From the NCBI GenBank assembly GCA_018060845.1, contig JAGOVG010000002.1:23581-87580 (forward strand): a stretch of 64,000 bases of DNA, given 5' to 3'. A model generated the notes under the pieces. It searched no databases, had not been told where the DNA came from, and worked only from the letters and a program-made list of their open reading frames with translations. Positions 4,838 through 30,342 of the stretch are shown here, one piece after another. The translations under genes and the position numbers were made by a program. The first letter of the stretch is position 1. Each line of letters starts with the position of its first letter. The DNA comes from Candidatus Woesebacteria bacterium (GTDB lineage Bacteria > Patescibacteriota > Microgenomatia > UBA1400 > UBA12108).

Positions 4838-6180
4838 AAATAATATTAAATTACGCCCTACCAATCGGCATCATCATCCTCGCGGCGTTTCTGCGCTTCA
4901 ATAACCTAAGCTACCGTGCACCCTTTGACTGGGATCAAAATCGCGACTACCAAGAAGTAGCAAAGATTGCTTCAGGCAAGCTAACTCTCATTGGTCCTGT
5001 TGCCCGCGGCGAGGGTGGGTTTTTTCTCGGCCCGCTTTATTACTACCTCCTCACTCCATCATTTGTCATAACGGGAGAGGATCCAATTGCACTCCCAGTT
5101 TCTAGCATCTTGTTAGATATTCTTGCAATTGGGCTCATTCTCTACTTAGGCAAGTATCTAGGTAATGCCAAATTTGGCTACCTTTTTTCACTCTTCTACG
5201 CTCTCTCGCCGAGCATGGTAGATGCATCTCTCGTCTCATGGAATGTTGCACTCTTGCCTCTCTGGGTCATCGCGATGCTACTCTTTTTGATCAAGCCAAA
5301 ATACAAAAGTATTGACCTCTTACTTGGTGGACTATTGCTCGGATCTAGCTGGCATATCCATGCGGCACTGATCCCGCTCGCACCTATCCTCCTCCTAGCT
5401 CGCTCCCGCTCTATCTCACTATTTTCTATTAAGTCCTTATGGTTGGTCACAGGCTACCTTCTCATGCTCTCGCCTCTCATCCTCTTTGATATCAGACACG
5501 TGGGGTTGCAGTCTAACTTAATCTCGAGCATGGTGACTGCTCAAGGTGAATCACGCGCTGCACTCCCTCTACTACTTGATTCTGTTTTGTCTCGCTTTGG
5601 CAAAAATCTCTCTAGTATGTTTGGAGGGCCAGGTGATCTTAATCTTTGGTTAGGTATCGTGGGATTATCTACATCTCTAGTTGCGGCCATCCGTGGTAAT
5701 GTGTTGTTGAGATTGTCAGCTCTCGCTGTTATTGCCAACATTACTCTTGTTATCCTCTTGGGATCGGTTGGCTTCCCAGAGTACTATCTCGCAACTGCGA
5801 CGATCGGCACACTACTAATCATTACTTACATCTTGTCTACTCACTGGCTAGGGATAGTCATAGCACTTTCTCTCTCACTTTTTTTACTCGCCACAAATAG
5901 CGCGACCGTTGGTCCATTCACGCTCGGTCACAAACTAGATCTTGTGTCTGTTGTTACAGAAGATAAGAGTCTTCATAAAGTCCTCTATGACCTTCCATAT
6001 GGGCGAGATAGCGGTCTGCCAGTTCTACTTAAACGTAGCGGTGCCCATACAAGTAGCGAGGGCAGAGTAATCTATATGATTAGCGACAAAACCGACCCCT
6101 CGCTATTTATAGAGGGTGAGATCGCGAGCGAGGTAGGCTGGTACGGCGGATTTCGATTAGTAAAGAGGGAGTTAAGATAG
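4834..6180 (+). CDS. Polytopic membrane protein, GT-C-like glycosyltransferase candidate
   Basis: 448 aa and highly hydrophobic. N-proximal loop FDWDQNRDYQEV resembles the PMT/ArnT loop-1 motif. ATGA overlap. Confidence 0.5.
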   Translation: MKIILNYALPIGIIILAAFLRFNNLSYRAPFDWDQNRDYQEVAKIASGKLTLIGPVARGEGGFFLGPLYYYLLTPSFVITGEDPIALPVSSILLDILAIGLILYLGKYLGNAKFGYLFSLFYALSPSMVDASLVSWNVALLPLWVIAMLLFLIKPKYKSIDLLLGGLLLGSSWHIHAALIPLAPILLLARSRSISLFSIKSLWLVTGYLLMLSPLILFDIRHVGLQSNLISSMVTAQGESRAALPLLLDSVLSRFGKNLSSMFGGPGDLNLWLGIVGLSTSLVAAIRGNVLLRLSALAVIANITLVILLGSVGFPEYYLATATIGTLLIITYILSTHWLGIVIALSLSLFLLATNSATVGPFTLGHKLDLVSVVTEDKSLHKVLYDLPYGRDSGLPVLLKRSGAHTSSEGRVIYMISDKTDPSLFIEGEIASEVGWYGGFRLVKRELR

Positions 6181-8730: not shown

Positions 8731-8731
8731 C

Positions 8732-10222
8732 ATGAACTATTTCAGGCTATTCCTTGTAATACTTGCTCTAGGTATCTTCGCTATAACTCTCCCATACTAT
8801 CGTAGTCATATTTTTGCAGTACATTTCGTAGATGAGGATGACAATATCGTGATCGGCAATTACCTTCGCGAAGGTAAAAAGCTCTACACGGATATTTTCT
8901 CTCAGCATCAACCAAGTATGTTTGTGTTGTCTGCTGCTCTGCAGGATAGAGTCTTCGTAAATAATGTTCAGATGGTCGTTCAGCGTCACCGCGAACTGAT
9001 GATCGTTTGGAGTTTATTATGGGTAATCTTCTTGGTAGCTCGATTTGGTTTTCCACTACTACTAACCACAAGTGTAATCGAAATGTCGAAGATAGCCTTA
9101 TTAGGCAACCTCTTCTTAGCAGAAAGCATAGTGATCTACCCACTCATCTATGTATTAGCCCATTATTTTTTTGCTCCCTCAATCATCAAGACTAGTGAAA
9201 AAATAATCTTATCAATAGTGTTCTGGTTTTTATGGTATAGCTTAACCCCGCTCTGGCCATTATTAATCCTTATATTCTTGATCTTTGGCTATAAAAATCG
9301 TAGTGATATTTCGTTACTCAAAATTTACATCACAACCGCGGCTATATTTACTTTGTTGCTCTTAATAATAACCAATTTTCGCGACTATTTTATTAGTGCT
9401 CTATATATTAACTACAAATATTACATTCCGCTAACAACCCCATTCGGATTCGCAGAATCGATCTACAAATCACTTTTTGCGCCCATCCTGGCTATATTCT
9501 CGACCCACACAGGGGAACTACTCATGCTAATTCGTATACTCTCGGTAGCTTTGATAATAAACATTGCTTACCTCATAAAATCAAAAAAATATATGCAAGT
9601 GGTGATAACTGTAATTTTATTATGGCTTACTTCACTTAGGTATATCGACCCAGCAGGTATGCTATATGGCGTGTTTCATATGCTGCCATGGTTTGCAGTC
9701 TTGACGATACTTTCATTTATAAATGACGCCACCCCAAAACTCGTTAACATCATTATGATGATCATGGTTATACTAGCAGCGTGCGGGGTCGCGCGAACAA
9801 ATCTATTTGACAGTCGTATTCCAGAAAATGACTATTATATTAACTTTTCACCTAAGTCAGATATCAGGGAGGCGGTCAAGATTTTGTCCGTTTCTTCACC
9901 TCAGACAATCTGGGTCGAACCAGTAATGTATTACCCTCATTGGCGAACCAAAGCACGTCCTTACACCAAAATGGTCAACTATTACGGTTGGATGGATCAA
10001 ACCGAGCCAATGAAGAGTGATCTTGATCACAATCTAGAGATAAACTTACCTACAATTGTCTACGCAGAAACTAAGCTAGGAATAGGTACTTATTTAGAAA
10101 AATATATTCCGATTACTAGAGAGGGTAGGCCAAGCGGGCTTTATCTGCGAGCCGATCAAGTTGATGGGTTAAGCAAAGAGACTCGCGCGCACCTGCTATA
10201 TTATAGATTTGAAATTAACTAA
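8732..10222 (+). CDS. Polytopic membrane protein (GT-C candidate)
   Basis: About 497 aa and very hydrophobic. VHFVDEDDNIV acidic loop near the N-terminus. First ATG at 8732, just after the upstream TAG. Confidence 0.45.
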   Translation: MNYFRLFLVILALGIFAITLPYYRSHIFAVHFVDEDDNIVIGNYLREGKKLYTDIFSQHQPSMFVLSAALQDRVFVNNVQMVVQRHRELMIVWSLLWVIFLVARFGFPLLLTTSVIEMSKIALLGNLFLAESIVIYPLIYVLAHYFFAPSIIKTSEKIILSIVFWFLWYSLTPLWPLLILIFLIFGYKNRSDISLLKIYITTAAIFTLLLLIITNFRDYFISALYINYKYYIPLTTPFGFAESIYKSLFAPILAIFSTHTGELLMLIRILSVALIINIAYLIKSKKYMQVVITVILLWLTSLRYIDPAGMLYGVFHMLPWFAVLTILSFINDATPKLVNIIMMIMVILAACGVARTNLFDSRIPENDYYINFSPKSDIREAVKILSVSSPQTIWVEPVMYYPHWRTKARPYTKMVNYYGWMDQTEPMKSDLDHNLEINLPTIVYAETKLGIGTYLEKYIPITREGRPSGLYLRADQVDGLSKETRAHLLYYRFEIN

Positions 10223-10236
10223 GCTATACTAAATAT

Positions 10237-11046
10237 ATGAACAATACTATTAATGGGCTAAGCGTCGCCTTAGCTGTCTACAACGAAGAATCTAGTTTGG
10301 CTGAGTGCTTAGATAGTATCAAAGACTTGGCGCATGAAATAATAATAGTCGACGGTAACTCGAGCGACAATACAGTCCAAATCGCTGAAAGTTACGGCGC
10401 CAAGGTCATCCATGAGTCCAATCGCCAAAACTTTCACATTAACAAGCAGTTAGCAATTGACGCCTGTACTGGTGACTGGGTGCTACAGCTAGACGCCGAT
10501 GAACGTGTCAGCTCTATGCTAGCTAATGAAATTAAGCAGGTTATTAGGGACCCAGGTGCCAAAGATGCTTATTATCTAAAGCGGCGCAACTACTTTCTCG
10601 GTCGTTTCATGAATAAAGGAGGAATGTATCCTGATCCAGTCATCCGCTTATTCAAAAAGGGGAAGGCCAAGCTACCTCAAGCTAGCGTACACGAGTTAAT
10701 GGCGGTCGATGGTACTCTAGCCTGGCTTCACAACGACTTGATCCATATCGCGGACCCAACATTTACTCGTTATCTACTCCGTAGTAATAGGTACACCACC
10801 CTAACGTCTCTCGACTACGCGAGAGATAATATTGGTACGAGCACTGTCACTATCCTCAACTATATGCTCCTCAAACCATTTGTCCGTTTTGTAACCATTT
10901 ACTTCCGACACAAAGGTTTCCAGGATGGTTTTCCCGGCTTTGTCTTTGCACTATATTCAGGCCTACATATCGCGAGTTCGTATGTTAAATACTGGGAAAA
11001 AAAGACAACCAACCAATCAACCTCTATGAAACATGATTGGAATTAG
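10237..11046 (+). CDS. GT2 glycosyltransferase, WaaE/KdtX-like
   Basis: LSVALAVYNEESSL, IIIVDGNSSDNT, LQLDADE, YYLKRRNYFLGRFMNKGGMYPDPVIRLFKKG. Confidence 0.75.
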   Translation: MNNTINGLSVALAVYNEESSLAECLDSIKDLAHEIIIVDGNSSDNTVQIAESYGAKVIHESNRQNFHINKQLAIDACTGDWVLQLDADERVSSMLANEIKQVIRDPGAKDAYYLKRRNYFLGRFMNKGGMYPDPVIRLFKKGKAKLPQASVHELMAVDGTLAWLHNDLIHIADPTFTRYLLRSNRYTTLTSLDYARDNIGTSTVTILNYMLLKPFVRFVTIYFRHKGFQDGFPGFVFALYSGLHIASSYVKYWEKKTTNQSTSMKHDWN

Positions 11047-12697
11047 CATGAAAAGACTGCTGCAAAAATATTTTCCTATCCTACTTATTTTAATATCAGG
11101 TCTGTTTTTGACATCGAGCCTGCTTAAGTCAGGTTGGTACCTCTCTCACGATGGTATTTTTCACATCTACCGAACCGAAGAAGCACTCTCCATGCTCAAG
11201 CTTGGACACTTTCCGCTGCGTTGGGCAGGCAACTTTGATCAAGGATTTGGCATACCACTCTTTAGTTTTGTTTATCCACTCCCATACTATATTAGCGCCA
11301 CATTATCAGTAATCTTTGGGACCATGTGGTCACTAAAGATGCTGACTATACTCGCTTACCTCCTAGGCGGCACAGGGATGTATTATCTGCTCTCCGCTTA
11401 TGGCCGGAGTTTTGGTATCTTTGGCGCCCTAATCTTCCTATTAACCCCTTACCAGTTTCTAAATATCTTTGTCCGTGGCACAATCGGAGAGACTCTCGCC
11501 ATTGGTCTCATGCCCTGGGTTTTGTATACCTACCAGCATCTCAAAAAGTCTGGTAATACGCTCGCATGGTACCATCCCATCCCGCTCGCGCTCGTCCTCT
11601 TATCTCACAACTTCCTTGGTATTTTATTCTCAGCTTTCTTGTTGGGTTACATGTTGACTGACAGGTCTTCGATCAAGCGCTCGATTGCAAGTCTCCTATT
11701 ATCACTTAGTCTTAGTGCATTCTTTATCCTGCCAATGATCATTCAAAAAAATCTGCTTTACTCTTTTGAATACAAAGATTTGACTTTCCGTTTTGACCAA
11801 CACTTTGTTACGCTAAAACAGCTCTTATATAGCAAATGGGACTATTGGTATTCGATGCCCGGCGATAACGATGGGATGTCATTCCAGCTAGGGATCGCAC
11901 AGCTCGGGATCGCAGCCGTATCCATACTAGTCATCCTCTGGCGCAGTCGTAGTTTATCTAATATATATCTAGTGATCGCGTATATTGGCACGGTATTTCT
12001 GATGCACAGCAAGAGTTTCTTTATCTGGGACAGCTTACCACTTTTGCAGTCAGTCCAGTTCCCTTGGCGCTTCCTCTTTATGCCACTGATTCTAACCCCG
12101 ATCCTCAGTGTTTCACTACTTAAGCTAATCAAATCAAAGCAACTTCGCTACATTTTAATGTTAATTTTTATATCTGTGGCGTTTGTGAATATCCGCAACT
12201 ATCGCAACCCCCAACAATTCATGGACAACACCACTTACACAGACCTATATCGTTTGTACTACAACAAAACGAGCACTACTTTTAGAACCGAGATACTACC
12301 CAAATGGAGCGTGCCACACGAGAGGTACAAGACAGATGAAGTATTGATTAATTCTGGCAACATGACAATAGATAAGCTAAAGTATGACCCATTATCAATT
12401 ATCATGACTATCAACAACAAACCTGATAGTAGCGAGGGCAGGGTTACAATTCTACGCAACTATTACCCCGGTTGGACTGTGACCATGGATAATTCAAAGA
12501 AAATAAAGATCGAGGCAACTGTCGATGGTATGATAATGCTCAAACCAGAGCTAGGTATTCATGAATATGAGATAGTAATGAAGAGTACAGTCGTTGAGAT
12601 GATTAGCAACGCTCTATCAGGTCTCACTTTAATAACATTAGGATATTTATGGTACAAAAACAAAAAAGCACTGCATTCAAAGGCAAAGTCGAAATAA
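11033..12697 (+). CDS. Large polytopic membrane protein (YfhO/GT-C-like candidate)
   Basis: 554 aa with many TM helices. YLSHDGIFHIYRTEEA loop. Contains an internal QLGIAQLGIAA mini-repeat. Alternative start ATG 11048, just after the upstream stop. Confidence 0.45.
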   Translation: MIGISMKRLLQKYFPILLILISGLFLTSSLLKSGWYLSHDGIFHIYRTEEALSMLKLGHFPLRWAGNFDQGFGIPLFSFVYPLPYYISATLSVIFGTMWSLKMLTILAYLLGGTGMYYLLSAYGRSFGIFGALIFLLTPYQFLNIFVRGTIGETLAIGLMPWVLYTYQHLKKSGNTLAWYHPIPLALVLLSHNFLGILFSAFLLGYMLTDRSSIKRSIASLLLSLSLSAFFILPMIIQKNLLYSFEYKDLTFRFDQHFVTLKQLLYSKWDYWYSMPGDNDGMSFQLGIAQLGIAAVSILVILWRSRSLSNIYLVIAYIGTVFLMHSKSFFIWDSLPLLQSVQFPWRFLFMPLILTPILSVSLLKLIKSKQLRYILMLIFISVAFVNIRNYRNPQQFMDNTTYTDLYRLYYNKTSTTFRTEILPKWSVPHERYKTDEVLINSGNMTIDKLKYDPLSIIMTINNKPDSSEGRVTILRNYYPGWTVTMDNSKKIKIEATVDGMIMLKPELGIHEYEIVMKSTVVEMISNALSGLTLITLGYLWYKNKKALHSKAKSK

Positions 12698-15482: not shown

Positions 15483-17291
15483 ATGAATTTCATCAAAAAA
15501 CTAATTACGCCAGTATTCTTACTTTTGATCGCACTCATAATCATCTTTCCTCGTTTTTATCAGCTAGGTGACACTCCACACGGCCTACATATCGATGAGG
15601 TTAGTTTTGCTGCTGACGCCAAGTCACTAGCCGAAACTGGCAAAGATACATGGGGAGTGACTATGCCTAGGGTTTTCAAAGCTTTTGGCGAGTATAAGGC
15701 GCCCGGCCTCACCTATAGTATGGCATTTTGGGCCAAAGTAACTGGCGACATGAACAATTATGTTGCCCGTCTCCCATCAGCGTTCGCCGGTCTAACCATG
15801 ATTGTAATGCTAGTTTTAACACTCAAAACACTTGTTCCCTCTATTAGTCCGATTCTCTTAGCTACTGTTGCTTTCATGCTCGCATATAGTCCTTGGCATT
15901 TTGATATGTCTCGTATTTTTTATGAAGCTTTTAGTGCCACGGCCTGGCTCTCTATCTCTATTTACTTTGCTACTAGACTATTACTACCATCTAAAAAAAG
16001 CTCCAAATATGACTGGCTCCTTATGCTCTCGACTGCCTCTATAGCTGGTTACTATTACGCTTCACTTCGCTACGTCATTATTATTTATGCATTAATCGTA
16101 TCTTATCTGCTAGAGACTAGGTTTAAAGCTATTCTTAAGAGAAGTGTGATAGCACTATTAGTACTCACATTGGTCGGTGTCGGCTGGGTAGGCGACCTAT
16201 TCTCCGATGTTGGCTTAAATAGACTCTACTACTATCAACAAAAAGCCGATTTTGGATCTGCCTTAGAGATCGATGAGAAACGTCAGTTCTGCTATCTAGC
16301 ACTGGATCGTGATTCAGAAGCAACGAGAGGATGCTACTTACTTTGGAATAAGCCTGTCTCGCGGATCACTGGGATCATAGCTACCACCTTGACCTATCTT
16401 GGTACTGATTTTCTGTTTATAAAAGGCGTGAGCGAGTACGGTTTTGATAGCCAGTACGGAGCGTATTTACCTCCACTTGTGCTTATTTACTTGATAGGGC
16501 TGTATTATGCTCTAACGAGCTTTGTACGCTTCATGACATCTCGATTAAAGAAGGAAGATAATTTGCAAATTAATCGAGAAGATAGGGTATTTGTTCTATA
16601 TCTAGGTCTTACACTGCTTTCGCTAGTTCCTGCAGCTGTTGCAATGAATCTAAATATGCGAATGGCAATGGTTAGTTTATATATAATCTCTATTCTAATT
16701 GGATATGGCATATATCAGTTGAACGAATACCTTGTGCGTACAGTCAAACCAACTATTCAAATACTATCTTATTGCTTGCTCGGTGGAGCATTTCTATTTT
16801 ACGCATTTCAATCAACGATCCATTATTGGTTCGTATTTACCAAAAGCAACGACCTTCAATGGACATCAGATGCAGGATCAATATTTCATTATGTTAAGAG
16901 TGTCTCTAATAGTTATGACCGTATTGTCGACACCGAACTACATGGTCCGTTGGCCCCATATTTTTACGGAGATATTACAACAGCTGAGGTTCATCATGGG
17001 GAGTACAGCAAGCCAGATGCAATAGGTTTTACATACCTAATAATGGCAGGTAAATATGAACTTAACCATATCAATATCAAAGATCTTGCATGCGAAGTAG
17101 TTAGTAAAAATGATAAGCGGAGAACTCTCTTAATTACAAATCCATACCCAGAACTCGTTTCTATGCGAAAATATGAATCACGTTCTTGGAATGGAGCACT
17201 CCTGCTTCACGAAGTCTACGATCTTGCAGACGTTATCGCATATATGCAGCGATCCGAGCCAAACTTTATGAGTCGCTGCGGGCCAAAATAA
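15483..17291 (+). CDS. Polytopic membrane glycosyltransferase, GT-C fold (PMT/ArnT-like)
   Basis: About 602 aa from ATG 15483 (MNFIKKLITPVF...). LHIDEVSFAADAKSL motif. Paralog of its neighbours. Confidence 0.6.
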   Translation: MNFIKKLITPVFLLLIALIIIFPRFYQLGDTPHGLHIDEVSFAADAKSLAETGKDTWGVTMPRVFKAFGEYKAPGLTYSMAFWAKVTGDMNNYVARLPSAFAGLTMIVMLVLTLKTLVPSISPILLATVAFMLAYSPWHFDMSRIFYEAFSATAWLSISIYFATRLLLPSKKSSKYDWLLMLSTASIAGYYYASLRYVIIIYALIVSYLLETRFKAILKRSVIALLVLTLVGVGWVGDLFSDVGLNRLYYYQQKADFGSALEIDEKRQFCYLALDRDSEATRGCYLLWNKPVSRITGIIATTLTYLGTDFLFIKGVSEYGFDSQYGAYLPPLVLIYLIGLYYALTSFVRFMTSRLKKEDNLQINREDRVFVLYLGLTLLSLVPAAVAMNLNMRMAMVSLYIISILIGYGIYQLNEYLVRTVKPTIQILSYCLLGGAFLFYAFQSTIHYWFVFTKSNDLQWTSDAGSIFHYVKSVSNSYDRIVDTELHGPLAPYFYGDITTAEVHHGEYSKPDAIGFTYLIMAGKYELNHINIKDLACEVVSKNDKRRTLLITNPYPELVSMRKYESRSWNGALLLHEVYDLADVIAYMQRSEPNFMSRCGPK

Positions 17292-17293
17292 TT

Positions 17294-18919
17294 ATGAAAA
17301 AATATACTCTTGCTCTCATTATTGGTATTGCCGCTCTCTTGCGTTTACCATTCCTCAACTCTCACATGGACACTCTTTATGGCGACGAAGTGGCACTTGG
17401 CTACAACGCCTTTGCGATCCGTGAGACTCTCCGAGATGAGTTTGGGCGTTTTATGCCGCTCCAGTTTGAGTCTTGGGGGGATCAAAAAAATCCAGTGTAT
17501 ATTTATGCAACAGCACTGACTCAGCTAGTAACTGGTCCCACAATGGCGAGTGTTCGCATCCCCTCTGCTATTGTGGGAGTACTCGCAGTCTACCTAACTT
17601 ACCGGCTAGTTATACTCCTTAAGCTGGGTAGTAGCGTGGCATTATTCTCAGCACTCCTCCTCGCTGTGAGTCCGTGGCACATCCATATTAGCCGGGGTGG
17701 GTACGAGGCTAATGTGGCACTCACCTTAGGCCTCGGTAGTGTAGTCCTACTATTCTCCCGACGCTTTGCACTATCTGCACTCCTCCTCGCACTCTCCGCC
17801 TATACCTACTACACCACTAAGATGTTTGCGCCAATCCTCTTACTCTTTGCCTGGGTCTACATGATTGACTGGTCCAAGTACAAAAATAGTATCAAGCCAT
17901 TCGTCAAATACTGGCTACTGTCCTTATTTTTTGTGATCCCAATTATTTATCTCGCGCTCTTTAAAGGTGGGCAAATCCGTTTTCAGAGTATTAACATATT
18001 CGTTGATAAAACTGTAACACCTAGGGTTGAGCGTGCCCGCAACTTCTTTGATAACCCAGAGAGTCTGGGGGCAAAACTCAGCGAGAACAGGTTCACCTAT
18101 CATCTGAGTGACTTTGTCATGTACTACCTAGAGAACTTTTCTGGGCAATTCCTCTTTGTAGGCGGGGATAGTAATGTGCGTTACGGTCTCGCCGGCCATG
18201 GCATGCTCTATTTGCTAGATGCACCACTTATCTTAATGGGTCTGATACTTCTGTATCATAAGAATCGGCGTGTTTGGTACTTCCTCGTAGCCTGGCTGCT
18301 GCTCGCCCCACTCCCAACAGCCCTTGTTGGTCGAGCGTATGGCTTGCGTAGTCTCGCCATGCTTCCAATCCCCCAGATCCTGGCAGCCTACGCCCTCACG
18401 TCTTGGGTAACAAACATAAAAAAATCCAAATTTACATTGTTGCTTTTTTCATTGTTCGTTATTCTCTATACCTTCTCCGTAGTCAATTGGCTCCATCGTT
18501 ACGTCTATCAATATCCCGCCTACGGGCGATACTGGTACGATGCCCCTATGCAAGATGCAGTAACTTATGCCAAAGAACGAGAGGATAAATATGATCAGAT
18601 CATTATCAGTCAGAGCTACGGCGAGGTCTCGATGTATTATGCATTCCTAAACAAGGTTCATCCCGACGTCTATAGGGCAGCCAAAGCCAACAAAGTCACA
18701 GTCGACGGCGTACCAATGGTCAAGCTTGGCAAATACTACTTTGGCGACATCAGGCCACGTGGACCGATTGAGAAGATGGATATCCCATACAATACTCTGA
18801 TCCTAGTCCAGCCATATTTTGAATACGGCGAAGGCACAATTATAGCTCGTGATGACGGCCGCCCTATTTATCGAGTCTTTGAGTTTCCAACAGTCCACAT
18901 GAAAGCTAAAGACCAATGA
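17294..18919 (+). CDS. Polytopic membrane glycosyltransferase, GT-C fold (PMT/ArnT-like)
   Basis: ATG 17294 (MKKYTLALIIG...). GDEVALGYNAFAIRE motif. Multi-TM. Confidence 0.6.
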   Translation: MKKYTLALIIGIAALLRLPFLNSHMDTLYGDEVALGYNAFAIRETLRDEFGRFMPLQFESWGDQKNPVYIYATALTQLVTGPTMASVRIPSAIVGVLAVYLTYRLVILLKLGSSVALFSALLLAVSPWHIHISRGGYEANVALTLGLGSVVLLFSRRFALSALLLALSAYTYYTTKMFAPILLLFAWVYMIDWSKYKNSIKPFVKYWLLSLFFVIPIIYLALFKGGQIRFQSINIFVDKTVTPRVERARNFFDNPESLGAKLSENRFTYHLSDFVMYYLENFSGQFLFVGGDSNVRYGLAGHGMLYLLDAPLILMGLILLYHKNRRVWYFLVAWLLLAPLPTALVGRAYGLRSLAMLPIPQILAAYALTSWVTNIKKSKFTLLLFSLFVILYTFSVVNWLHRYVYQYPAYGRYWYDAPMQDAVTYAKEREDKYDQIIISQSYGEVSMYYAFLNKVHPDVYRAAKANKVTVDGVPMVKLGKYYFGDIRPRGPIEKMDIPYNTLILVQPYFEYGEGTIIARDDGRPIYRVFEFPTVHMKAKDQ

Positions 18920-19572
18920 AGCTATACGTTGTTGTGCCAGCATATAACGAATCAAGATTTATTGGCGCCTTCTTAGATAAATTATCCAAGAAAACTAAAA
19001 ACATTATTGTAGTAGACGACGGAAGTCGCGATCGCACAACTGACATCGTCAAATCTAAGGGGATCAAAGTGCTTACGCATATCACCAACCTGGGCAAGGG
19101 TGCTGCTTTAAAAACAGGTTGCGAGTACGCGTTTAATAGACTCGGCGCTGATGGAGTTATTATTATGGATGGAGATGATCAACACGACGTCTCAGATATC
19201 TCACAGTTTGCCAATGCACTAAGTAGAGGCGCACACATAGTTCTAGGAGTTAGAGCAATGGATAGCAGGATGCCGCTGACCCGGTTACTTGGCAACAGAT
19301 TTACTTCTGTTCTGATAAACGTTCTTTTCGGTCGCTATATCTCTGATGTCCCGAGCGGCTTCAAGGCTATGACAAAGAGTGCATACAAAAAGCTCTTATG
19401 GCACAGTAGTGGGTACGAGGTCGAGACCGAAATCGCAGTTAGGCTCGCAAAAAGTAAGATTAATTATGTAGAGATACCTATCAATACTATCTATCATGGC
19501 AAAGAGTACGGATTTAACTTGATCGACGCTGCCCGTATTATAATAAAGATACCTTACTGGATATGGAGCTAA
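18916..19572 (+). CDS. GT2 polyprenol-phosphate sugar synthase-like (Dpm1/GtrB-like) glycosyltransferase
   Basis: 218 aa. VVPAYNESRFI, VVDDGSRDRT, DGDDQHD. A short soluble GT2 typical of dolichyl/undecaprenyl-phosphate mannose/glucose synthases. ATGA overlap. Confidence 0.6.
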   Translation: MKLYVVVPAYNESRFIGAFLDKLSKKTKNIIVVDDGSRDRTTDIVKSKGIKVLTHITNLGKGAALKTGCEYAFNRLGADGVIIMDGDDQHDVSDISQFANALSRGAHIVLGVRAMDSRMPLTRLLGNRFTSVLINVLFGRYISDVPSGFKAMTKSAYKKLLWHSSGYEVETEIAVRLAKSKINYVEIPINTIYHGKEYGFNLIDAARIIIKIPYWIWS

Positions 19573-19898
19573 ACACTATGATTGGTATACAAATGTTCTC
19601 GATCGTATTTATCTTCATCATGTTATATGTCGTACGTATCCACTACAAAAAACAAGAATTGCCACGCGTAGAAGCTATGTTTTGGAGCATAGTCCTCCTA
19701 TCTCTAGCTACGATCGTAATAGTCCCTGGTAGTGCTGATGCAGTTAGAAACCTTTTTCAAGTATCGCGATTACTAGATGTAATCATGATAATAGCCTTTA
19801 TGGGAACATTTATATTCTTAATCGAGAATCGAATCCAGATAAGCAAACTCCGCTCCAAACTAGAGCTGTTGACTAGAGAGAAAGCCATGAAAGAGTAG
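19563..19898 (+). CDS. Small two-TM membrane protein with C-terminal coiled-coil tail (DUF2304-like), partner of the preceding GT2
   Basis: 111 aa, two hydrophobic helices, then charged KLRSKLELLTREKAMKE. This family commonly follows polyprenol-P GT2 genes. Alternative start ATG 19578, preceded by GGAG. Confidence 0.45.
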   Translation: MELNTMIGIQMFSIVFIFIMLYVVRIHYKKQELPRVEAMFWSIVLLSLATIVIVPGSADAVRNLFQVSRLLDVIMIIAFMGTFIFLIENRIQISKLRSKLELLTREKAMKE

Positions 19899-19899
19899 T

Positions 19900-20676
19900 A
19901 TGAAGTTGCCAAAAATTTCTATCGTTACTCCTAGCTACAATCAGGCTAAGTATATAAGAGCTACTATCGATAGTGTCCTTACCCAAGCCTACCCTAATCT
20001 CGAATATATCGTAATGGATGGAGGTAGTACGGACGGCACAGTTGAAATACTCAAAAGCTATGGCACTAAAATACGATGGGAGAGTAAAAAAGATAATGGT
20101 CAGACTCATGCAATTAACAAAGGGTTACGCCGAGCTACGGGACAGGTACTCGCATATCTCAACTCTGACGACATATATCTCCCTGGCACGCTTCAGACAG
20201 TAGGGGAGTATTACGCTCGGACCAAAGCCGATTGGATTACAGGGGATTGTATAGTAATAGATGAACACGGTAATCCTAGTCGTAGTAACTGGCTGATCTC
20301 AGGATATAAGCGTTTGCTTATGAAATTATATAGTCGTACTACACTTATGATCGCCGATTCGATGTTGCCGCAACCATCGACTTTCTGGTCCCGCAATGCA
20401 GCGAGTGTGGTAGGTGAGTTTAATGAAAAATATCACTACGTCATGGACTACGACTATTGGCTCAGATTATCTAAGCATTATCGTCCTCATGAACTCAAGG
20501 TTGCACTCTCTGGCTTTCGCGCCCAACCAGACAGTAAAAGCGAAACTAGTCGTCCAAAGTTAATGGCAGAAGGAGAATTGGCATTAGTGGCAAATGGAGC
20601 CAAACCCTGGCATCTCACTCTCCATCGAGCACATTCAGCAGTTGTTCGCCTAATCTACAACTTAATCAAGCAGTGA
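19900..20676 (+). CDS. GT2 family glycosyltransferase
   Basis: ISIVTPSYNQAKYIRATIDSVLTQAYPNLEYIVMDGGSTDGT. Confidence 0.75.
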   Translation: MKLPKISIVTPSYNQAKYIRATIDSVLTQAYPNLEYIVMDGGSTDGTVEILKSYGTKIRWESKKDNGQTHAINKGLRRATGQVLAYLNSDDIYLPGTLQTVGEYYARTKADWITGDCIVIDEHGNPSRSNWLISGYKRLLMKLYSRTTLMIADSMLPQPSTFWSRNAASVVGEFNEKYHYVMDYDYWLRLSKHYRPHELKVALSGFRAQPDSKSETSRPKLMAEGELALVANGAKPWHLTLHRAHSAVVRLIYNLIKQ

Positions 20677-20699: not shown

Positions 20700-22079
20700 A
20701 TGAAATTAAATAAATTAACAATAATCGGAAGTGTCATTCTATGTATAGCTTTTGCATTATCAGGGACATTTGTTTCAGTACACCGATTCTATCAATTTGA
20801 TTCCTTTTACTATGATTTTGGTATTTTTGATCAAGCAATTTGGCGAGTCTCACAATTTAGTGCGCCAATAATAGATCATTATGTTGTTGGTGGATCATGG
20901 ATATTTGGCGATCATTTTAGCCCAGCTCTAATGTTGCTCGCCCCCATCTACTGGGCTACACACGCTCAAGAGGCCATATTCTTAGTTCAAGCTGCATTTG
21001 CAGCCTTAGCAGGGCTTGTCTTGTACAAGACAGCATATGCACTAACTAGTAATAATATTATCTCTCTCACAGTCCAAGTGGTTTTTTATCTATTTACTGG
21101 CCTACAAAACGCAGTGATTACAGATATCCATGAGTTAACATTCGCTACTCTCCCGATCTCAGTGGTTCTATATTCCCTCGTCACGCGTAATAAGCATATG
21201 TATATATTCTCATCACTATTTCTACTCCTCTTCAAAGAATCAACATTCCTCGTTATTTGTGGTATTCATTTCTATACTTGGTTAAAAGTAAAAGAATGGC
21301 GAAATACGGCTATTTTGCTCTCTATACTTAGTATTATTTATGCTTATTGCGTAATAACCTTTGTAATCCCAGCTTTTTCAAACTACTATCAATACAACTT
21401 TTTGTCTGGACACACCATTCGGAGTGCGATCAGCTCGCTCTATGACAACCCCATCAAGATAAAAACGGTGGTCGATAGTCTCACTAGCTTCTCATTTGCC
21501 GCGATATTTACACCAGCACTCTGGCCAACATACTTAGCTCATTACTGGGCACGATTTTTATCCACCGCTGGTTCGCGCTGGGAAATAGGACTTCACTACA
21601 ACGCTGAAATTGCACCTATATATGCTTTCTCATTGATGCTCATCTTACATAAAATAACTATTCACAAGAAGATGGCAACTCAGTTAGTGGTTGCTTTAGT
21701 TGTTGTAGCCATTGCACTCTATCAAAACTATGTTCGGCTGAAGATGCCCTTCTTAATGGCGACCAATCCCGCACTCTATCTTGCATCAGATCGAACAGTC
21801 GAAATACGAAAATATCTTAAACAAATGCCATCAGATCAAATAATTATGGCACCAAATCATCTAGCTGCCCATCTCACACATAAAAAAGTACTGCTCGCTC
21901 GCGATAAATATAAGGATTACGATCCAGAATACATAATATTTGATACTAATCCAGATCAAAGTGGTAATAACTGGTACGGTTTGAAAGATAAGGAGCAGTA
22001 TATTAAAAATGTGTCTGCAGATTTTGATTATATGCTGATACAATCAATCTCTAGTTACCAAATTTATAAGAAGAACTGA
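20700..22079 (+). CDS. Polytopic membrane protein, DUF2079-like (putative GT-C glycosyltransferase)
   Basis: 459 aa. [17 protein letters not shown] matches the conserved HF.P segment of the DUF2079 family. Confidence 0.45.
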
Positions 22080-22080
22080 T

Positions 22081-23025
22081 ATGTCTAATGACTCTTGGGC
22101 AAACAAGCGAGTAGTTGTAACCGGCGGTGCAGGGTTCCTGGGATCGAATGTAGTTAAACAACTAGAAGATTTAAGCGTTAAGGATATTGTAATTCCTCGC
22201 TCAAATACTAACGATCTAAGATCTCAAGAGGCTTGTGCCAAAGTGGTAGAAGGAGCAGATATAGTCATTCATTTAGCTGCCAACGTCGGTGGTATTGGAT
22301 ATAACCGCGACTTCCCTGGGACGCTCTTTTACGATAACCTCCTAATGGGTGTACATATGATGGAAGAGAGTAGGAAGGCAGGGGTTAAAAAATTTGTCGC
22401 TATCGGAACAATTTGCGCCTACCCAAAATTCGCCCCAATCCCTTTCAAAGAACAAGATCTTTGGGATGGTTACCCAGAGGAGACAAATGCTCCCTATGGT
22501 CTAGCCAAAAAGATGATGTTAGTCCAGAGTACTGCGTACAGGGATCAGTACAACTTTAATAGCATCTTTCTCCTACCAGTAAACTTATACGGTCCAGGTG
22601 ATAACTTTGAGCCGGGCAGTAGTCACGTGATACCTGCGCTTATAAAAAAATTTGTCGAAGCAAAACAAAATGGATCCAATAGCGTCGAAGTATGGGGAGA
22701 TGGCGCTGCTACTCGGGAATTTTGTTATGTTGATGATGCTGCAAAGGGCATTATTCTCGCAACTGAAAAGTATAATAAGAGTGAGCCTGTAAATATCGGT
22801 GCAGGCTTCGAAATATCGATACACGATCTCGCAAACAAAATTTCAGATTTGATAGGTTACACTGGTCAAATAATCTGGGACAAATCCAAACCGAATGGTC
22901 AGCCTAGACGAATGCTAGATGTGTCACGCGCAGCATCCGAATTTGGTTTTACTGCAAACACTACCTTTGACGTAGGATTATCAAAAACAGTGAGTTGGTA
23001 TATCAATAACGTCTCAAAAATATGA
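22081..23025 (+). CDS. NAD(P)-dependent epimerase/reductase, GDP-L-fucose synthase (Fcl/WcaG)-like
   Basis: [15 protein letters not shown] Rossmann motif. [34 protein letters not shown] parallels the Fcl catalytic Y-x3-K region. Confidence 0.65.
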
Positions 23026-23975
23026 ACTGGTATAGGCATTACATCGGGCTATATCTCAGCGTTTTCTCAGTGTTGATGGCTGCCATAGAAACCTACAAAT
23101 ATCCTGGATTTATATTCAAGCATTTCAATTTTTTGCCGATGATATTTTATGTTATTACTGGTATAGCAATAATTGCTATCAAGCTATACCCTCCGCCAAC
23201 TCCAGAAAAATCTCTCCTAGCCATAACATTTAGATTACTGGCAATTTATGCCATCATTTTGACAGGCGTGTTCTATATTATCGAAACAATAACTTATCCG
23301 AACTTCATTTTTACTTACCTCCATGTCCACCTAGATGGTTTGCAGATCCTAACGGGTATGCTTTTTGTATACTTTGCCTTATCAAACCTCATGCATAGAC
23401 ACTATGTCGCTATTCTAAACAGCACCTTTCTTCTGGCCATATCATCACTCTTAATAAACTATGCGATCATCAATACGATAGATGTAACAAAATTAGTGAA
23501 AAAAGAAGTCAAGGCCATGCAGATACCTGCAAAAAATGACGAAGAAAAAAACGAAGCAGGGTGGGGAACAATCTATCTATATGCACAAATGCTAAAACAA
23601 GCTACCCCTGAAGATGCGGTTATCGCAATGCCACCGGCTCAAAATCACTGGCTATACTCTGGCAACATAGTATTGATGCGTTACTTTTTGTACCCACGGA
23701 CTCTCGTTAACGTCAAAGAAACCGCCGACCCTTCAACACTCCTCGAACTACCCGATCAAGAGTATGGTTATGTCGCACTCGTTTGGGGTGAGTCAAATGA
23801 GCGTGATATGTCTCCCTATGGTTGGCCAAAGACTAGTATCAGCGCAGAATATATAGACTACTTTGACCTAAGTAGTAAGACCACTAAACGTGAGGTTAAT
23901 ACAGAATATCTACCCACTGTTTTAAATGAGTCTATATGGGGAGTAATTAAGGTTAAGCAAGAGGAGTCGCAATGA
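23022..23975 (+). CDS. Polytopic membrane protein, unknown function
   Basis: 317 aa, multiple TM helices, C-terminal soluble segment. ATGA overlap. Confidence 0.5.
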
Positions 23976-25267
23976 TGTTAATATTGATCACGCTACTCGT
24001 CATTATCGGTGGGTTCATCCTAGGTAGATATTTATACCCAGCCGCAAACACTCCTATCTCTATAAGTATTGGTATTCTCCTAGGAACAGGTCTCTATATT
24101 ATCTCGATGTATCTACTCGGATTGCTAGGAATTTCGTGGACTCAACTGAGTTTAACTCTGTTGGCATTAATCATATTTGTTGCCTCACTACCTCTCGTTA
24201 GGTTGATTACAAAACCAACCAATGCCCCTAACCAAACTCTAGGAATTGTTGTAGTTTTGCTTTTTACTAGTTTTTCGATGATAGTTAATTCGTATTGGCC
24301 AGTTCGAGACTGGGATGCGCTTACTCTCTATGATTTTAGAGCCAAAGTATTTTCTGAGAACCAAGAAATAGCTGGTATCTTTACTCCCGAGCTCAACTAC
24401 TATTTAGCCTACCCTTTCTTTACTTCTTTAGTTCATACAGTATCTTATGTCTTCGAATATGCGAGGCCTGCAATTTACTACAGTTTGGTATATGCAGTAC
24501 TCGGGTTATTTATCTTCGGCTTTTTGAGTCAAAAGGTGTCAAAAGTTCTTTCAATTATCTTTACCATCTTAGTGATGCTGAGTGGTGACATCTTTAACCA
24601 TTCATTCATTTCTTATACCAACCTCACTTATACTACATATTTTGTAGTCGGGATGCTTACCTTTTCCGAAGGGATAGCAACTAAAAAGATCAAGCTATTG
24701 ATCTTGGGTTCAACGTTGATAGGGGTTATGCAGCACGTTAGATATGATGACCCATTTTGGATCATACCAATGCTAATTTCTGGCTTATTATTTATTAAGA
24801 GTAAAAACTACAAGCCATTACTCATCTCTATTATAATAGTTTTACTATTTAGATTTCTCTGGTCAGGATACAAGAGCGCCATGATGCATGGGTATATGCC
24901 AGTTGGGTCACTAACTACACCTAATTTACTAGAAACATTGCTCTCTACCGATATATTACAACGAGTCGTTGATGTCTCGACATTTTTATATAAAACACTC
25001 TGGCTAAAATATGGAATCCTGATTTACATATTTATCTTTTCAGTTCTGATCTCATGGAGAAAAAAATCAGAACTTCTCCGCCTTAGCCAATTTACTACAT
25101 TTCTCATCCTTGCCATACTTTATTTTGGGACCATAGCAATGAGCTATTTATACGCAAAATGGAACGTAGTTGGAGGGTCCGTTGCACGAATGATGATGAT
25201 CCTAATCCCTACATCATTAGTCTCAGCTTGCCTCGCTCTCGGAGAATATTTTAATGAAAAAAAGTAG
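23972..25267 (+). CDS. Polytopic membrane protein (GT-C-like candidate)
   Basis: 431 aa with about 12 TM helices. WPVRDWDALTLYDFRAK loop. GAGGAG RBS at 23961-23966. ATGA overlap. Confidence 0.45.
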   Translation: MMLILITLLVIIGGFILGRYLYPAANTPISISIGILLGTGLYIISMYLLGLLGISWTQLSLTLLALIIFVASLPLVRLITKPTNAPNQTLGIVVVLLFTSFSMIVNSYWPVRDWDALTLYDFRAKVFSENQEIAGIFTPELNYYLAYPFFTSLVHTVSYVFEYARPAIYYSLVYAVLGLFIFGFLSQKVSKVLSIIFTILVMLSGDIFNHSFISYTNLTYTTYFVVGMLTFSEGIATKKIKLLILGSTLIGVMQHVRYDDPFWIIPMLISGLLFIKSKNYKPLLISIIIVLLFRFLWSGYKSAMMHGYMPVGSLTTPNLLETLLSTDILQRVVDVSTFLYKTLWLKYGILIYIFIFSVLISWRKKSELLRLSQFTTFLILAILYFGTIAMSYLYAKWNVVGGSVARMMMILIPTSLVSACLALGEYFNEKK

Positions 25268-27055: not shown

Positions 27056-28108
27056 ATGATCGCAGTTATCTACGGGACTCGACCAGAAATAATAAAGCTG
27101 AGTCCGATAATCAGATCGGCTATCGAGCAGGAACGTGATCTTGTTACCATTCATACTGGACAGCACTTTTCTCGTAACATGAATGATGTTTTTTTTGACA
27201 ACTTAGAGCTTCCGCGTCCCGATTACGAATTAAATGTAGGCTCCAAATCGCATGCTGAAATGGTCGCCGAGGCACTAGTTGGGATCGAAAAAATATTATT
27301 AAAACATAAGCCAACTATTGTTTTAGTCCAGGGTGACACTAACTCTGCTCTCGCAGGTGCTCTAGCCGCCGCAAAATTAGGGATCAAAGTCGGTCATATC
27401 GAGGCTGGACTTAGGAGCTTTGACCGCCGAATGCCAGAAGAACTAAATCGCGTCCTGATTGACCATATGTCTGATCTGCTTTTTGCACCTACCGATATAG
27501 CCTCTAACTTTTTGCTTAGCGAGGGGATAGATAAGGATAAGATAAAAGTAGTCGGTAATACGATAGCTGACGCTCTCAAATATGGTCTTAAAAAATCAAT
27601 CAATACACCACTACCACTCTCGCAAACTTCAAAACAATACTACCTAGCCACTCTCCATCGTCAAGAAAATGTCGATGATCCGATCATCCTCAAACAAATC
27701 ATAACTAACTTCAAAAGCATTACAAAAGATTTTTCAACCACGCTAGTATTGCCGCTTCATCCTCGAACTAAGCAGCTACTCAGCACGAACAACATCAATA
27801 CCACCGGGATTAGTGTAATCGAACCCCAGGATTACTTTAACTTCCTCTCTTTACTTAGTAACGCGAAATTGGTACTTACTGACTCCGGGGGTATCCAAGA
27901 GGAGGCATGTATCTTAGGGATTCCATGCATCACTCTACGTGACAATACCGAACGACCAGAGACAGTAGAGCTAAAGTCGAATATCCTCGTAGGCAGTGAT
28001 CTAACTCAAACAATTAACGCGATAAACTATTTCGAGTCTCACCAGGATGGCTGGAAGCAGCCATATGGCGAAGGTGATACAGCTGAGAGGATACTTTCGT
28101 CGCTATGA
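27056..28108 (+). CDS. wecB: UDP-N-acetylglucosamine 2-epimerase (non-hydrolysing)
   Basis: MIAVIYGTRPEIIKLSPII, HTGQH, GHIEAGLRSFD, DSGGIQEEA are hallmark WecB/MnaA motifs. Confidence 0.85.
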   Translation: MIAVIYGTRPEIIKLSPIIRSAIEQERDLVTIHTGQHFSRNMNDVFFDNLELPRPDYELNVGSKSHAEMVAEALVGIEKILLKHKPTIVLVQGDTNSALAGALAAAKLGIKVGHIEAGLRSFDRRMPEELNRVLIDHMSDLLFAPTDIASNFLLSEGIDKDKIKVVGNTIADALKYGLKKSINTPLPLSQTSKQYYLATLHRQENVDDPIILKQIITNFKSITKDFSTTLVLPLHPRTKQLLSTNNINTTGISVIEPQDYFNFLSLLSNAKLVLTDSGGIQEEACILGIPCITLRDNTERPETVELKSNILVGSDLTQTINAINYFESHQDGWKQPYGEGDTAERILSSL

Positions 28109-30342
28109 AAATCCTCTATATGGTCGACTACTATCAGCCGCAGATAGGGTACAACGAGTACTATCTCCCATCTGAGTGGTCGCGACTTGGCCATGATGTC
28201 ACAATCCTGACTTCTGATCACTACTATCCTTTTCCTAACTATGAGGAGACTGTAGGTAAACTGCTCGGTGCACGTCGTCAAAAACCAGGGATTTATAAGC
28301 AAGACAAGATCACGGTTATTAAAAAGCCCATGCAGTTTGAAGTCTTTACTAGAGCAGTATTCGGTGGTCATGAGTCAATAATTAACAAAATACGACCCGA
28401 CATTGTAATCGTAAATAAGTCATCTAGCTATAACTCATTCCAAGCAGCTAGGTTAAAAAAGAAATATCACTACAAATTAATCACATATGATGCCCATTTG
28501 ATGTCTGGGTACAACGCCGTCGGAAATGTTGCGTTCAAAGATTTTGTTTATTGGCTGTATCGCTTGACCATATCGAGATATATGAACAAGAGAGTAGACA
28601 AATACATCGCAGTGCAAGAAGGCACGGTTGATGTGATGATCAACTTGTATGGTCAAAAACCTGTAGAACACATACCGCTTGGTACCGATCCTGAGCGTTT
28701 TAGGTATGATATTGCAGCAAGGCGGGAAACAAGAAAAAAATATCAGATTCCGATCACTGCGAGCGTTGGGATATATACTGGCAAAATAATCCCTACTAAA
28801 GGCGTATCTATCTTATATGAGGCATTTGGTAGACTAGCCAAAAAAAATCCCAACCTACACCTCTTAATCGTTGGTTCAGGAGGTGCTGACTACATCAAAC
28901 AATGCGAAAGTCTAGTTGACTCAAAATATCTCAAGCGAATCCATCTAGTTGGATTTAAGGAAACCAAAGAGTTATACAAATTCTACTCAGCATCAGATTT
29001 TGGGATCTGGCCTCTAGAAGAATCTACTTCAATGAATGATGCTGCAGCGTGTGAAATACCCTTTATAGCTAACGACGAAGCCGGGGTGAAGCAAAGGTTC
29101 AAAAATGACAATGCGCTTAAATATCTGAGAGGTGATAGTAGAGACCTCTCAGTTAAAATGGAGTACCTAATTAACAACCCCAAGGAAGCTAAAAACATGG
29201 GAAAAAGGGGTAGAGAGTTAATTTTGAATGAGCTTAGTTGGAACAAGATCGCAAAGCAGTATTTATCTGTCATAAAGGGTGACGTAGAGCAAGACCTAAG
29301 TAAAACCCTTGATTGGCTAGAAGAAGCGCAGCGTGTAACTGGAGACGGAGGTGTGTCAGCATACCATATGATAATCAGAGGGTGGGCACCTTCTTTTATC
29401 GAAACGACTGGATATATTATATCGACGTTTCTAGATGCCGCTAAACATAAGAATAATAAAATATATCTTCGTCTCGCTATCAAGATGGGGGATTTCATTA
29501 TCAGCAATCAGCTAGGTAATGGTGGGTATCGAACTTATACCAAAGGGCATGTTGAATTATCTGAACCTACGATCTTTAACACAGCTCAAGACATTATTGG
29601 ATTAGTCGACCTATATCTTGTAACTAAAGACAAAAAGTATCTTAACTCAGCTCAGCTAGCCGGAGATTTTTTAGTTTCTTCTCAAAATCAGGATGGATCA
29701 TGGACTCAGTTTACCCATAATAGCGTGCCAAAAACATATCACTCACGAGTAGCTTATGCACTCCTAAAATTATATGAAATCAATCGCAAGTTAACATTTA
29801 AGAAAGCAGCGATAAAGCAGCTAGATTGGGTGCTATCAAGACAGCTAAAGAATGGTTTTGTCACTAATGCCGAGTTGCCAGTCGCTAAATATCCTTTTAC
29901 CATCACTCATACGATTGCGTATGTCGCCGAAGGATTGTTATACAGTGCAAAAATCTTAAAATCAAACAAATATCAAACAGCAGCTCTAAGAATTATTGAT
30001 AAAGTTCATCGGCACTATCTCTCATACAACGAACTCCCGTCATATTTTGATCAAAACTGGAAACCACAGGAGAAGTTTGGATGTCTGACTGGTGAAGCTC
30101 AGTTTGCGATCCTATTTATGGAGACGTACAAAATCAAGAACGATCAGTCTTATCTATCAAGCGCATACAACCTTATTAATAGAATAGGGGTAGACATGTC
30201 GGCTACGGGTGGTATCCCAGGTTCCAGACCAATATACGGAGATTTATTGCACAACCGGGGTTATTGTCGCTTATCTTATATCAACTGGGCAGCAAAGTTT
30301 ACCGCTGATGCCGAAATGTTATTCTTAAGTATATGGAAATAA
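28105..30342 (+). CDS. Bifunctional-looking protein: N-terminal GT4 glycosyltransferase fused to a C-terminal alpha/alpha-toroid (six-hairpin, QW-repeat-like) domain
   Basis: 745 aa. The GT4 region spans roughly residues 1-390. The C-terminal portion (about 350 aa) has repeated Q..(D/N)G(S/G)(W/Y) units (QNQDGSWTQ, NQLGNGGYRT, RQLKNGFVT) reminiscent of prenyltransferase/terpene-cyclase or AGE-type toroids. Confidence 0.55.
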   Translation: MKILYMVDYYQPQIGYNEYYLPSEWSRLGHDVTILTSDHYYPFPNYEETVGKLLGARRQKPGIYKQDKITVIKKPMQFEVFTRAVFGGHESIINKIRPDIVIVNKSSSYNSFQAARLKKKYHYKLITYDAHLMSGYNAVGNVAFKDFVYWLYRLTISRYMNKRVDKYIAVQEGTVDVMINLYGQKPVEHIPLGTDPERFRYDIAARRETRKKYQIPITASVGIYTGKIIPTKGVSILYEAFGRLAKKNPNLHLLIVGSGGADYIKQCESLVDSKYLKRIHLVGFKETKELYKFYSASDFGIWPLEESTSMNDAAACEIPFIANDEAGVKQRFKNDNALKYLRGDSRDLSVKMEYLINNPKEAKNMGKRGRELILNELSWNKIAKQYLSVIKGDVEQDLSKTLDWLEEAQRVTGDGGVSAYHMIIRGWAPSFIETTGYIISTFLDAAKHKNNKIYLRLAIKMGDFIISNQLGNGGYRTYTKGHVELSEPTIFNTAQDIIGLVDLYLVTKDKKYLNSAQLAGDFLVSSQNQDGSWTQFTHNSVPKTYHSRVAYALLKLYEINRKLTFKKAAIKQLDWVLSRQLKNGFVTNAELPVAKYPFTITHTIAYVAEGLLYSAKILKSNKYQTAALRIIDKVHRHYLSYNELPSYFDQNWKPQEKFGCLTGEAQFAILFMETYKIKNDQSYLSSAYNLINRIGVDMSATGGIPGSRPIYGDLLHNRGYCRLSYINWAAKFTADAEMLFLSIWK

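Follow-up and report, generated by a model that had tools for sequence, protein, structure and literature searches.

Two-subunit polyprenyl-phosphate glycosyltransferases

In Streptococcus pyogenes, GacJ is a protein of 113 amino acids (aa) that belongs to the DUF2304 family, has three transmembrane (TM) helices and is encoded just 3′ of gacI. GacJ co-purifies with the glycosyltransferase GacI and takes the Km of GacI for undecaprenyl phosphate (Und-P) from 18.7 to 1.1 µM. The product of GacI is GlcNAc-P-Und, in which N-acetylglucosamine (GlcNAc) is joined through phosphate to undecaprenol, and from which the GT-C enzyme GacL moves GlcNAc to polyrhamnose, and fusions of GacJ to GacI occur naturally. 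Here, a pair of adjacent genes that very probably specifies a two-subunit polyprenyl-phosphate glycosyltransferase of the GacI/GacJ type is described from a 64,000 nucleotide stretch of a Candidatus Woesebacteria genome [GenBank assembly GCA_018060845.1, contig JAGOVG010000002.1, positions 23,581 to 87,580, forward strand], referred to as the window. The first gene of the pair predicts a family-2 glycosyltransferase (GT2) of 218 aa, designated GT2_218, and the second a small DUF2304 protein.

Equivalents of GacI/GacJ are EpaI/EpaJ in Enterococcus faecalis and WpsA/WpsB in Lactococcus. WpsA has amphipathic C-terminal helices and no TM segment, and its activity is raised by WpsB, for which a published AlphaFold2 (AF2) model has a hairpin of helices, a short helix lying perpendicular, and a fourth helix that is long and touches WpsA with its C-terminal part. 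WpsC, encoded directly 3′ of wpsA-wpsB, uses the GlcNAc-P-C55 formed by WpsA/WpsB as its acceptor, and the flippase Wzx and a GT-C enzyme, WpsJ, complete the Lactococcus system. In Mycobacterium tuberculosis, Rv3632 (114 aa, TM segments at 4–21, 30–48 and 68–85) is reported to direct PpgS (Rv3631) to the membrane or stabilise it there. Every characterised synthase with a DUF2304 partner makes polyprenol-phosphate-linked GlcNAc or N-acetylgalactosamine (GalNAc), and in the systems named here the small protein binds its GT2 and boosts this synthesis, the lipid product then being consumed by a GT-C enzyme outside the membrane.

The pair in the window resembles GacI/GacJ and EpaI/EpaJ in family, size and topology, each pairing a TM-less GT2 with a directly following DUF2304 protein, which has about 110 aa and three TM helices. 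It differs from GacI/GacJ in its host, an uncultured member of the Candidate Phyla Radiation (CPR; Microgenomates/Woesebacteria-like), in having no adjoining gene for a Wzx (GacK-like) flippase, and in that the partner GT-C genes are PMT_2-like and lie directly upstream. The gene order GT2, DUF2304, glycosyltransferase is also that of wpsA, wpsB and wpsC, and both structures predicted here share the layouts published for the Lactococcus proteins, including the amphipathic C-terminal helices of the GT2. However, WpsC varies between strains whereas the next gene in the window, which encodes a further GT2 designated GT2_258, is conserved across related loci, and the Lactococcus product is a primer that WpsC extends, while a primer role here is only a candidate. 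The pair is like PpgS/Rv3632 in that GT2_218 aligns with the PpgS model over its full length, the spacing of TM segments in the small protein is nearly the same, and nucleotide-sugar epimerase genes are found nearby in both.

A GT-A fold, interface helices, a DxDxQH motif and acceptor-site Arg residues are shared with the DPMS of Pyrococcus furiosus (PfDPMS), GtrB and ArnC, but these proteins carry 2–4 C-terminal TM helices in the same chain, whereas in the window the TM helices belong to a separate protein. A similar division of labour is found in human DPM1/DPM3, where a TM-less catalytic subunit is tethered by a small membrane protein via a cytoplasmic C-terminal helix. DPM3 has two TM helices and its family is unrelated to DUF2304, and the arrangement is analogous to that of the pair in function only.

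Sequence and predicted structure of GT2_218

GT2_218 (positions 18916–19572, + strand) is a GT-A glycosyltransferase without a TM segment and is predicted to be a polyprenyl-phosphate monosaccharide synthase of the GacI/WpsA/PpgS type. The start codon of its gene shares bases with the stop codon of the GT-C gene that lies upstream (ATGA). An earlier sequence-only reading of the window, made by a model from the open reading frames (ORFs) and their translations, had proposed a Dpm1/GtrB-like GT2 at this position, coupled to a small DUF2304-like membrane partner that ends at 19898. Both ORFs are present as proposed and on the + strand, as are the quoted GT2 motifs VVPAYNE (aa 6–12), VVDDGSRDRT (aa 32–41) and DGDDQHD (aa 85–91), and a Pfam search placed the protein in PF00535 (E = 4.5e-25). 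No segment of GT2_218 reaches the TM threshold in a hydropathy analysis. The C-terminal helix at 202–217 is hydrophobic and amphipathic (hydrophobic moment 0.51, mean hydrophobicity 0.48) and, given this modelled helix, the protein is better termed peripheral than soluble, the word used in the sequence-only reading. A processive synthase was ruled out, as GT2_218 is too short at 218 aa, has no TM segment at its C-terminus or elsewhere, and is covered by the PgaC model over aa 4–88 only.

The highest NCBIfam scores of GT2_218 were with AglJ (108.2 bits, cutoff 325) and PpgS, the polyprenyl-phospho-GalNAc synthase (104.8 bits, cutoff 370). In the latter match, aa 4–208 align with positions 3–215 of the 226-position model. 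Lesser matches were to a haloarchaeal Dol-P hexose transferase (62 bits) and ArnC (31 bits). As judged from sequence by these curated cutoffs, GT2_218 is in the same class as PpgS and AglJ and is an orthologue of neither. Because the PpgS score is far below its cutoff, it does not establish the sugar or orthology to a characterised enzyme, and the GalNAc specificity of PpgS is not transferable. The sugar is likewise not discriminated by comparing the two scores, with 108 bits for AglJ, a hexose enzyme, and 105 bits for the GalNAc enzyme.

Among solved structures, the best sequence match to GT2_218 is PfDPMS [PDB 5mlz] (E = 2e-10), and the next best are ArnC and GtrB. In the alignment with PfDPMS, E12 corresponds to Glu12, the motif D85-x-D87-x-Q89-H90 to 89-DADLQH-94, R113 to Arg117 and R123 to Arg131, and E12, the DxDxQH motif, R113 and R123 are invariant in 33 homologues. 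In PfDPMS, the equivalent residues are ligands either of the metal and donor diphosphate or of the acceptor phosphate. The base-reading Asp39 of PfDPMS likewise has an Asp counterpart in GT2_218, though this does not discriminate between donors.

The AF2 model of GT2_218 has a predicted local distance difference test (pLDDT) of 87.3 and a predicted template modelling score (pTM) of 0.85. The top Foldseek matches obtained with this model are ArnC, GtrB and DPMS, with query-normalised scores (TMq) of 0.75–0.78 and E-values down to 8e-12. Assignment to the Dpm1/GtrB class, as originally made from the letters alone, is thus borne out by retention of DxDxQH and of both Arg residues and by the best superpositions of the model. 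What is not matched is the architecture of GtrB, ArnC and type-III DPMS, as GT2_218 has 218 aa and no TM segment while the structural targets have 300–355 aa. The GT2_218 chain ends after the second interface helix, at the point where the membrane domain of ArnC, GtrB and DPMS starts. An enzyme of this length is nonetheless plausible, because PfDPMS truncated at residue 229, and hence missing its TM domain, is still membrane-bound and fully active.

The DUF2304 partner

The second gene (19578–19898, + strand) encodes a member of the GacJ/WpsB/Rv3632 family, 106 aa in length. It is predicted to have three TM helices, a short helix within a loop and, at its C-terminus, a long basic helix that lies in the cytoplasm. 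The mechanical ORF is longer (19563–19898, 111 aa), and residue numbers used here follow the 111 aa version. Membership of DUF2304, which had been suggested from the appearance of the small ORF, was confirmed with Pfam PF10066 (58.1–58.3 bits, cutoff 25.5, E = 1.2e-15), the match extending over positions 2–104 of the 106 in the model. The small protein had also been described as having two TM helices, but three hydrophobic segments are evident from hydropathy, at aa 7–25, 38–54 and 70–87.

In the AF2 model (pLDDT 79.5), helices span aa 2–29 and 35–53, followed by a short helix at 55–65 and a long one at 69–110, in which the charged tail is modelled as an extension of the third TM helix. An N-out, C-in topology is favoured by the sequence, because the tail has 7 Lys and Arg residues, against 3 in loop 1 and 2 in loop 2.

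The true start is likely to be the ATG at 19578, 5 nt past the GT2_218 stop codon (TAA, 19570–19572), because the start is at a Met equivalent to Met6 in 22 of 28 aligned DUF2304 homologues and because a GGAG Shine-Dalgarno-like motif (19565–19568, + strand) is located 9 nt before this ATG, inside the 3′-end of the GT2_218 gene, while inspection of the sequence upstream of the ATG at 19563 revealed no such motif. Most of 108 DUF2304 homologues are 106–107 aa long. A start at 19563 would overlap the GT2_218 gene by 10 nt. The tight coupling of the two genes proposed in the sequence-only reading holds under either start, but the overlapping start that it assumed is not the one favoured.

A search of solved structures with the small protein found nothing significant, the best match being a GPCR fragment (E = 0.17). 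The earlier treatment of GtrA and DUF2304 as a single type of membrane partner does not stand, as GtrA is a flippase-type protein unrelated to DUF2304 and the small ORF has no match to GtrA (PF04138) in Pfam even at E ≤ 1. DPM3 was similarly absent from its Pfam matches at that threshold.

Conservation of the gene pair

Neither ORF is a chance reading frame, as 2231 GT2 and 108 DUF2304 homologues were found, mostly 56–99% identical, and the synteny is conserved. Among the metagenomic homologues listed, the gene pair is 62–94% identical, and the homologues with names are from Woesebacteria, Collierbacteria, Moraniibacteria and other Microgenomates. A genome scan recovered 14 related loci, which were compared using phmmer. 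The gene for GT2_218 is 5′ of the DUF2304 gene in all 13 that include upstream DNA, and directly so except in L010, where a 117 aa 23S_rRNA_IVP ORF (PF05635, E = 1.1e-34; L010 positions 5617–5970) lies between the two. Two PMT_2-like GT-C genes are directly upstream of the pair in 9 of 12 related loci. Downstream, GT2_258 is found in 12 of 13, directly adjoining in 10, and a gene for a short-chain dehydrogenase/reductase (SDR) resembling GDP-fucose synthase in 10 of 13. A second SDR epimerase gene directly precedes that of the GT2 in L013 and L014.

A profile search of 1.84 billion representatives yielded 375 DUF2304 representatives at E ≤ 0.001, and nearly all of the 150 listed are 105–125 aa long with full-length matches. 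One homologue met with the CPR-derived profile, P0284, is annotated as Candidatus Woesearchaeota, a DPANN archaeon, and the family therefore reaches small-genome archaea.

The same synteny was seen in third party annotation (TPA) metagenome-assembled genomes titled ‘uncultured Pseudomonadales’ or ‘Gammaproteobacteria’ (L001, L003, L005, L006, L008 and L011–L013), in which the loci are up to 92% identical at the protein level. These taxonomic labels are probably wrong.

Predicted function and alternatives

In the mechanism proposed for the pair, GT2_218 would lie on the cytoplasmic face of the membrane, held by amphipathic interface helices at approximately aa 121–138 and 202–217. The nucleotide-activated (NDP) sugar would be bound at the D85-x-D87-x-Q89-H90 metal site, and one sugar would be transferred, with inversion, to undecaprenyl (polyprenyl) phosphate at its phosphate group, with R113 and R123 holding this acceptor. 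The DUF2304 protein would span the membrane three times with its N-terminus outside, and its long basic C-terminal helix would reach into the cytoplasm and dock on GT2_218, placing the active site over the lipid and letting the lipid acceptor bind with higher apparent affinity. After translocation to the outer face, the polyprenyl-phosphate-linked sugar would serve GT-C enzymes as substrate, most likely the two PMT_2-like GT-Cs encoded directly upstream, with a wall polymer or a protein as the extracytoplasmic acceptor. Formation of a complex, stimulation of the GT2 by its partner, use of a lipid acceptor and consumption of the product by GT-C enzymes are all expected by analogy with GacI/GacJ, WpsA/WpsB and PpgS/Rv3632. 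The best guess for the transferred sugar is an N-acetylhexosamine (HexNAc), because the characterised DUF2304-partnered synthases make HexNAc-P-polyprenol and genes for WecB and GalE are present in the locus.

Several observations weigh against a GacI/GacJ-type enzyme. Ser135 of PfDPMS, a key phosphate ligand, aligns with Asn127 of GT2_218, which is nearly invariant among the homologues, and every NCBIfam score of GT2_218 is far under the equivalog cutoff, as for PpgS above. The most distant loci, L011, L013 and L014, have no GT-C gene directly upstream of the pair. The window has no gene for a GtrA-type flippase, and its single Wzx-like gene (38169–39446) is 18 kb away. The activity of the pair in a Microgenomates lineage is, moreover, a prediction from homology.

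A variant of this explanation follows WpsA/WpsB, in that the polyprenyl-phosphate-linked sugar would serve as a primer, not as a monosaccharide donor, and would be extended in the cytoplasm, with GT2_258 acting first. The resulting lipid-linked oligosaccharide would then be flipped, and a GT-C enzyme would transfer it en bloc. Such a role is tentatively regarded as possible. The WpsA/WpsB product is treated in just this way by WpsC, Wzx and WpsJ, the genes are ordered GT2, DUF2304, GT2 in 12 of 13 loci, among them the most distant, where no GT-C gene adjoins, and the locus includes the Wzx-like gene together with many cytoplasmic GT2 and GT4 genes. However, a separate pyrophosphate-linked pathway, for which Bac_transf and Wzy_C genes are present, could account for both Wzx and the cytoplasmic glycosyltransferases, and translational coupling of the two GT-C genes to the pair is what would be expected of a simple donor system of the GacL type. 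The adjacency of GT2_258 alone is no proof that it acts on the lipid-linked product.

The functional diversity of GT-A enzymes in the GT2 family raises the question of whether GT2_218 is an ordinary cytoplasmic glycosyltransferase that acts on a pyrophosphate-linked oligosaccharide or another non-lipid acceptor, with the DUF2304 protein as a mere tether. The Foldseek list also includes the fucosyltransferase WrtF and glucosyl-3-phosphoglycerate synthase (E ∼1e-10), and all of the NCBIfam matches are under their equivalog cutoffs. This alternative is nevertheless considered improbable, as the best matches in both sequence and structure are specifically polyprenyl-phosphate glycosyltransferases, the equivalents of the acceptor-phosphate residues Arg117 and Arg131 are invariant, and each characterised DUF2304 partner is paired with a polyprenyl-phosphate-HexNAc synthase. 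It is less probable still that the DUF2304 protein, possibly in oligomeric form, has the further task of carrying the polyprenyl-phosphate-linked sugar across the membrane, in place of a flippase of the GtrA or GacK type. The lack of a GtrA-like ORF in the window and the distance of the Wzx-like gene would fit such a role, PfDPMS catalyses its reaction without needing its TM domain, so that the domain could serve another purpose, and a 2026 paper raises possible flipping of the product by the TM domain of PfDPMS. However, S. pyogenes and Lactococcus have a separate Wzx-type flippase alongside the GacJ/WpsB homologue, and the measured effect of GacJ is on enzyme kinetics. Extending the idea to the block of genes GT-C, GT-C, GT2, DUF2304, GT2 would make it a self-contained, lineage-wide CPR system for surface glycosylation, in which the DUF2304 protein both activates the synthase and transports its product, and PMT_2-like enzymes glycosylate surface proteins or the wall without a dedicated flippase. 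There is little likelihood that this is so.

The GacI/GacJ-type reading is in line with the core of the earlier suggestion that the two genes form a module supplying a lipid-linked sugar donor to GT-C enzymes. The concept is not new, as the mechanism has already been published for streptococci, lactococci, enterococci and mycobacteria, and the CPR context is new as annotation. A literature search found no paper joining ‘Candidate Phyla Radiation’ with ‘GT-C’, and to our knowledge there is no experimental information on the envelope glycans of Microgenomates-type CPR bacteria. The value of the finding is in annotation and context, in that a well-founded biochemical role can be assigned to a very conserved gene pair of these bacteria. 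The pair is also the likely single entry point of polyprenyl-monophosphate-linked sugar into a locus of approximately 59 kb that includes genes for at least seven GT-C enzymes.

Genes adjacent to the pair

The gene immediately upstream (17291–18919, + strand), translationally coupled 5′ of GT2_218, predicts a 542 aa GT-C enzyme of the PMT_2 type that matches PF13231 (28.8 bits, cutoff 26.1) and PF02366, and it is a paralogue of the ORF at 7078 (phmmer, 210 bits). It is a candidate user of the lipid-linked sugar. The gene preceding it (15483–17291, + strand) encodes a second polytopic GT-C paralogue of 602 aa, which has no Pfam match of its own and was recognised by phmmer scores of 61.8 bits with the 7078 ORF and 43.6 bits with the 17291 ORF.

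GT2_258 (19900–20676, + strand) is a cytoplasmic GT2 (PF00535, E = 4.8e-31) and its gene begins 1 nt past the DUF2304 stop codon. No strong match to a polyprenyl-phosphate synthase was found for it in NCBIfam, and it is a candidate either for a WpsC-like extender of the lipid-linked sugar or for an unrelated glycosyltransferase. It is followed by a gene for a polytopic DUF2079 membrane protein of 459 aa (20700–22079, + strand; PF09852, E = 7.5e-43), which is syntenic in the closest loci only (L001–L003) and is possibly a further GT-C-like enzyme; a literature search found no article naming DUF2079. The next gene (22081–23025, + strand) predicts an SDR of 314 aa that resembles GDP-L-fucose synthase, matching NF047922 over its full length at 286.6 bits, below the equivalog cutoff of 500. 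No GDP-mannose 4,6-dehydratase gene was found in the window.

A scan for promoters and terminators between 13 and 26.5 kb gave counts at or under the shuffled expectation. This is consistent with the genes around the pair forming one long operon but says little.

The glycan biosynthesis locus

The pair is part of a single co-directional glycan biosynthesis locus of ∼59 kb (window positions 694–59372, + strand) that takes up almost all of the window and ends before genes for RecO, a class II aminoacyl-tRNA synthetase and MraZ. Five PMT_2-type GT-C genes are above threshold, beginning at 1581, 7078, 17291, 42176 and 49423, and with the paralogues at 13703 and 15483 the total is at least seven; the ORF at 4834 is a weak PMT_2 match. 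Besides the Wzx-like gene, the locus holds a Wzy_C gene (47762), a Bac_transf phosphoglycosyltransferase gene (56755), nucleotide-sugar genes for WecB (27056), GalE (34657) and a ManC-like protein (55680), approximately ten GT4 genes, several methyltransferase genes and a DUF4012 gene (57357).

Ten GT2-like ORFs were identified in the window, nine of them above the Pfam cutoff and one (ORF 2950) sub-threshold. A full-length match to a polyprenyl-phosphate-sugar synthase was obtained for GT2_218 only, with ORFs 52050 and 2950 judged by Pfam alone. Apart from the DUF2304 gene, no unassigned small membrane ORF, GtrA-like or other, was found in the window.

Six ORFs (8693–10222, 11033–12697, 23022–23975, 23972–25267, 31917–33476 and 33490–34617) predict polytopic membrane proteins that have no match in Pfam or NCBIfam, a threshold of E ≤ 1 having been applied to some of them. 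They are candidates for divergent GT-C enzymes, polymerases or flippases, and in most related loci the ORF at 23022 (317 aa) keeps its synteny with the module. A further ORF (28105–30342, 745 aa) has an unusual combination of an N-terminal GT4 fused to a C-terminal region with weak matches to the C-terminus of glucuronyl C5-epimerase, pectate lyase, GH127 and LanC-like (alpha/alpha)6 families.

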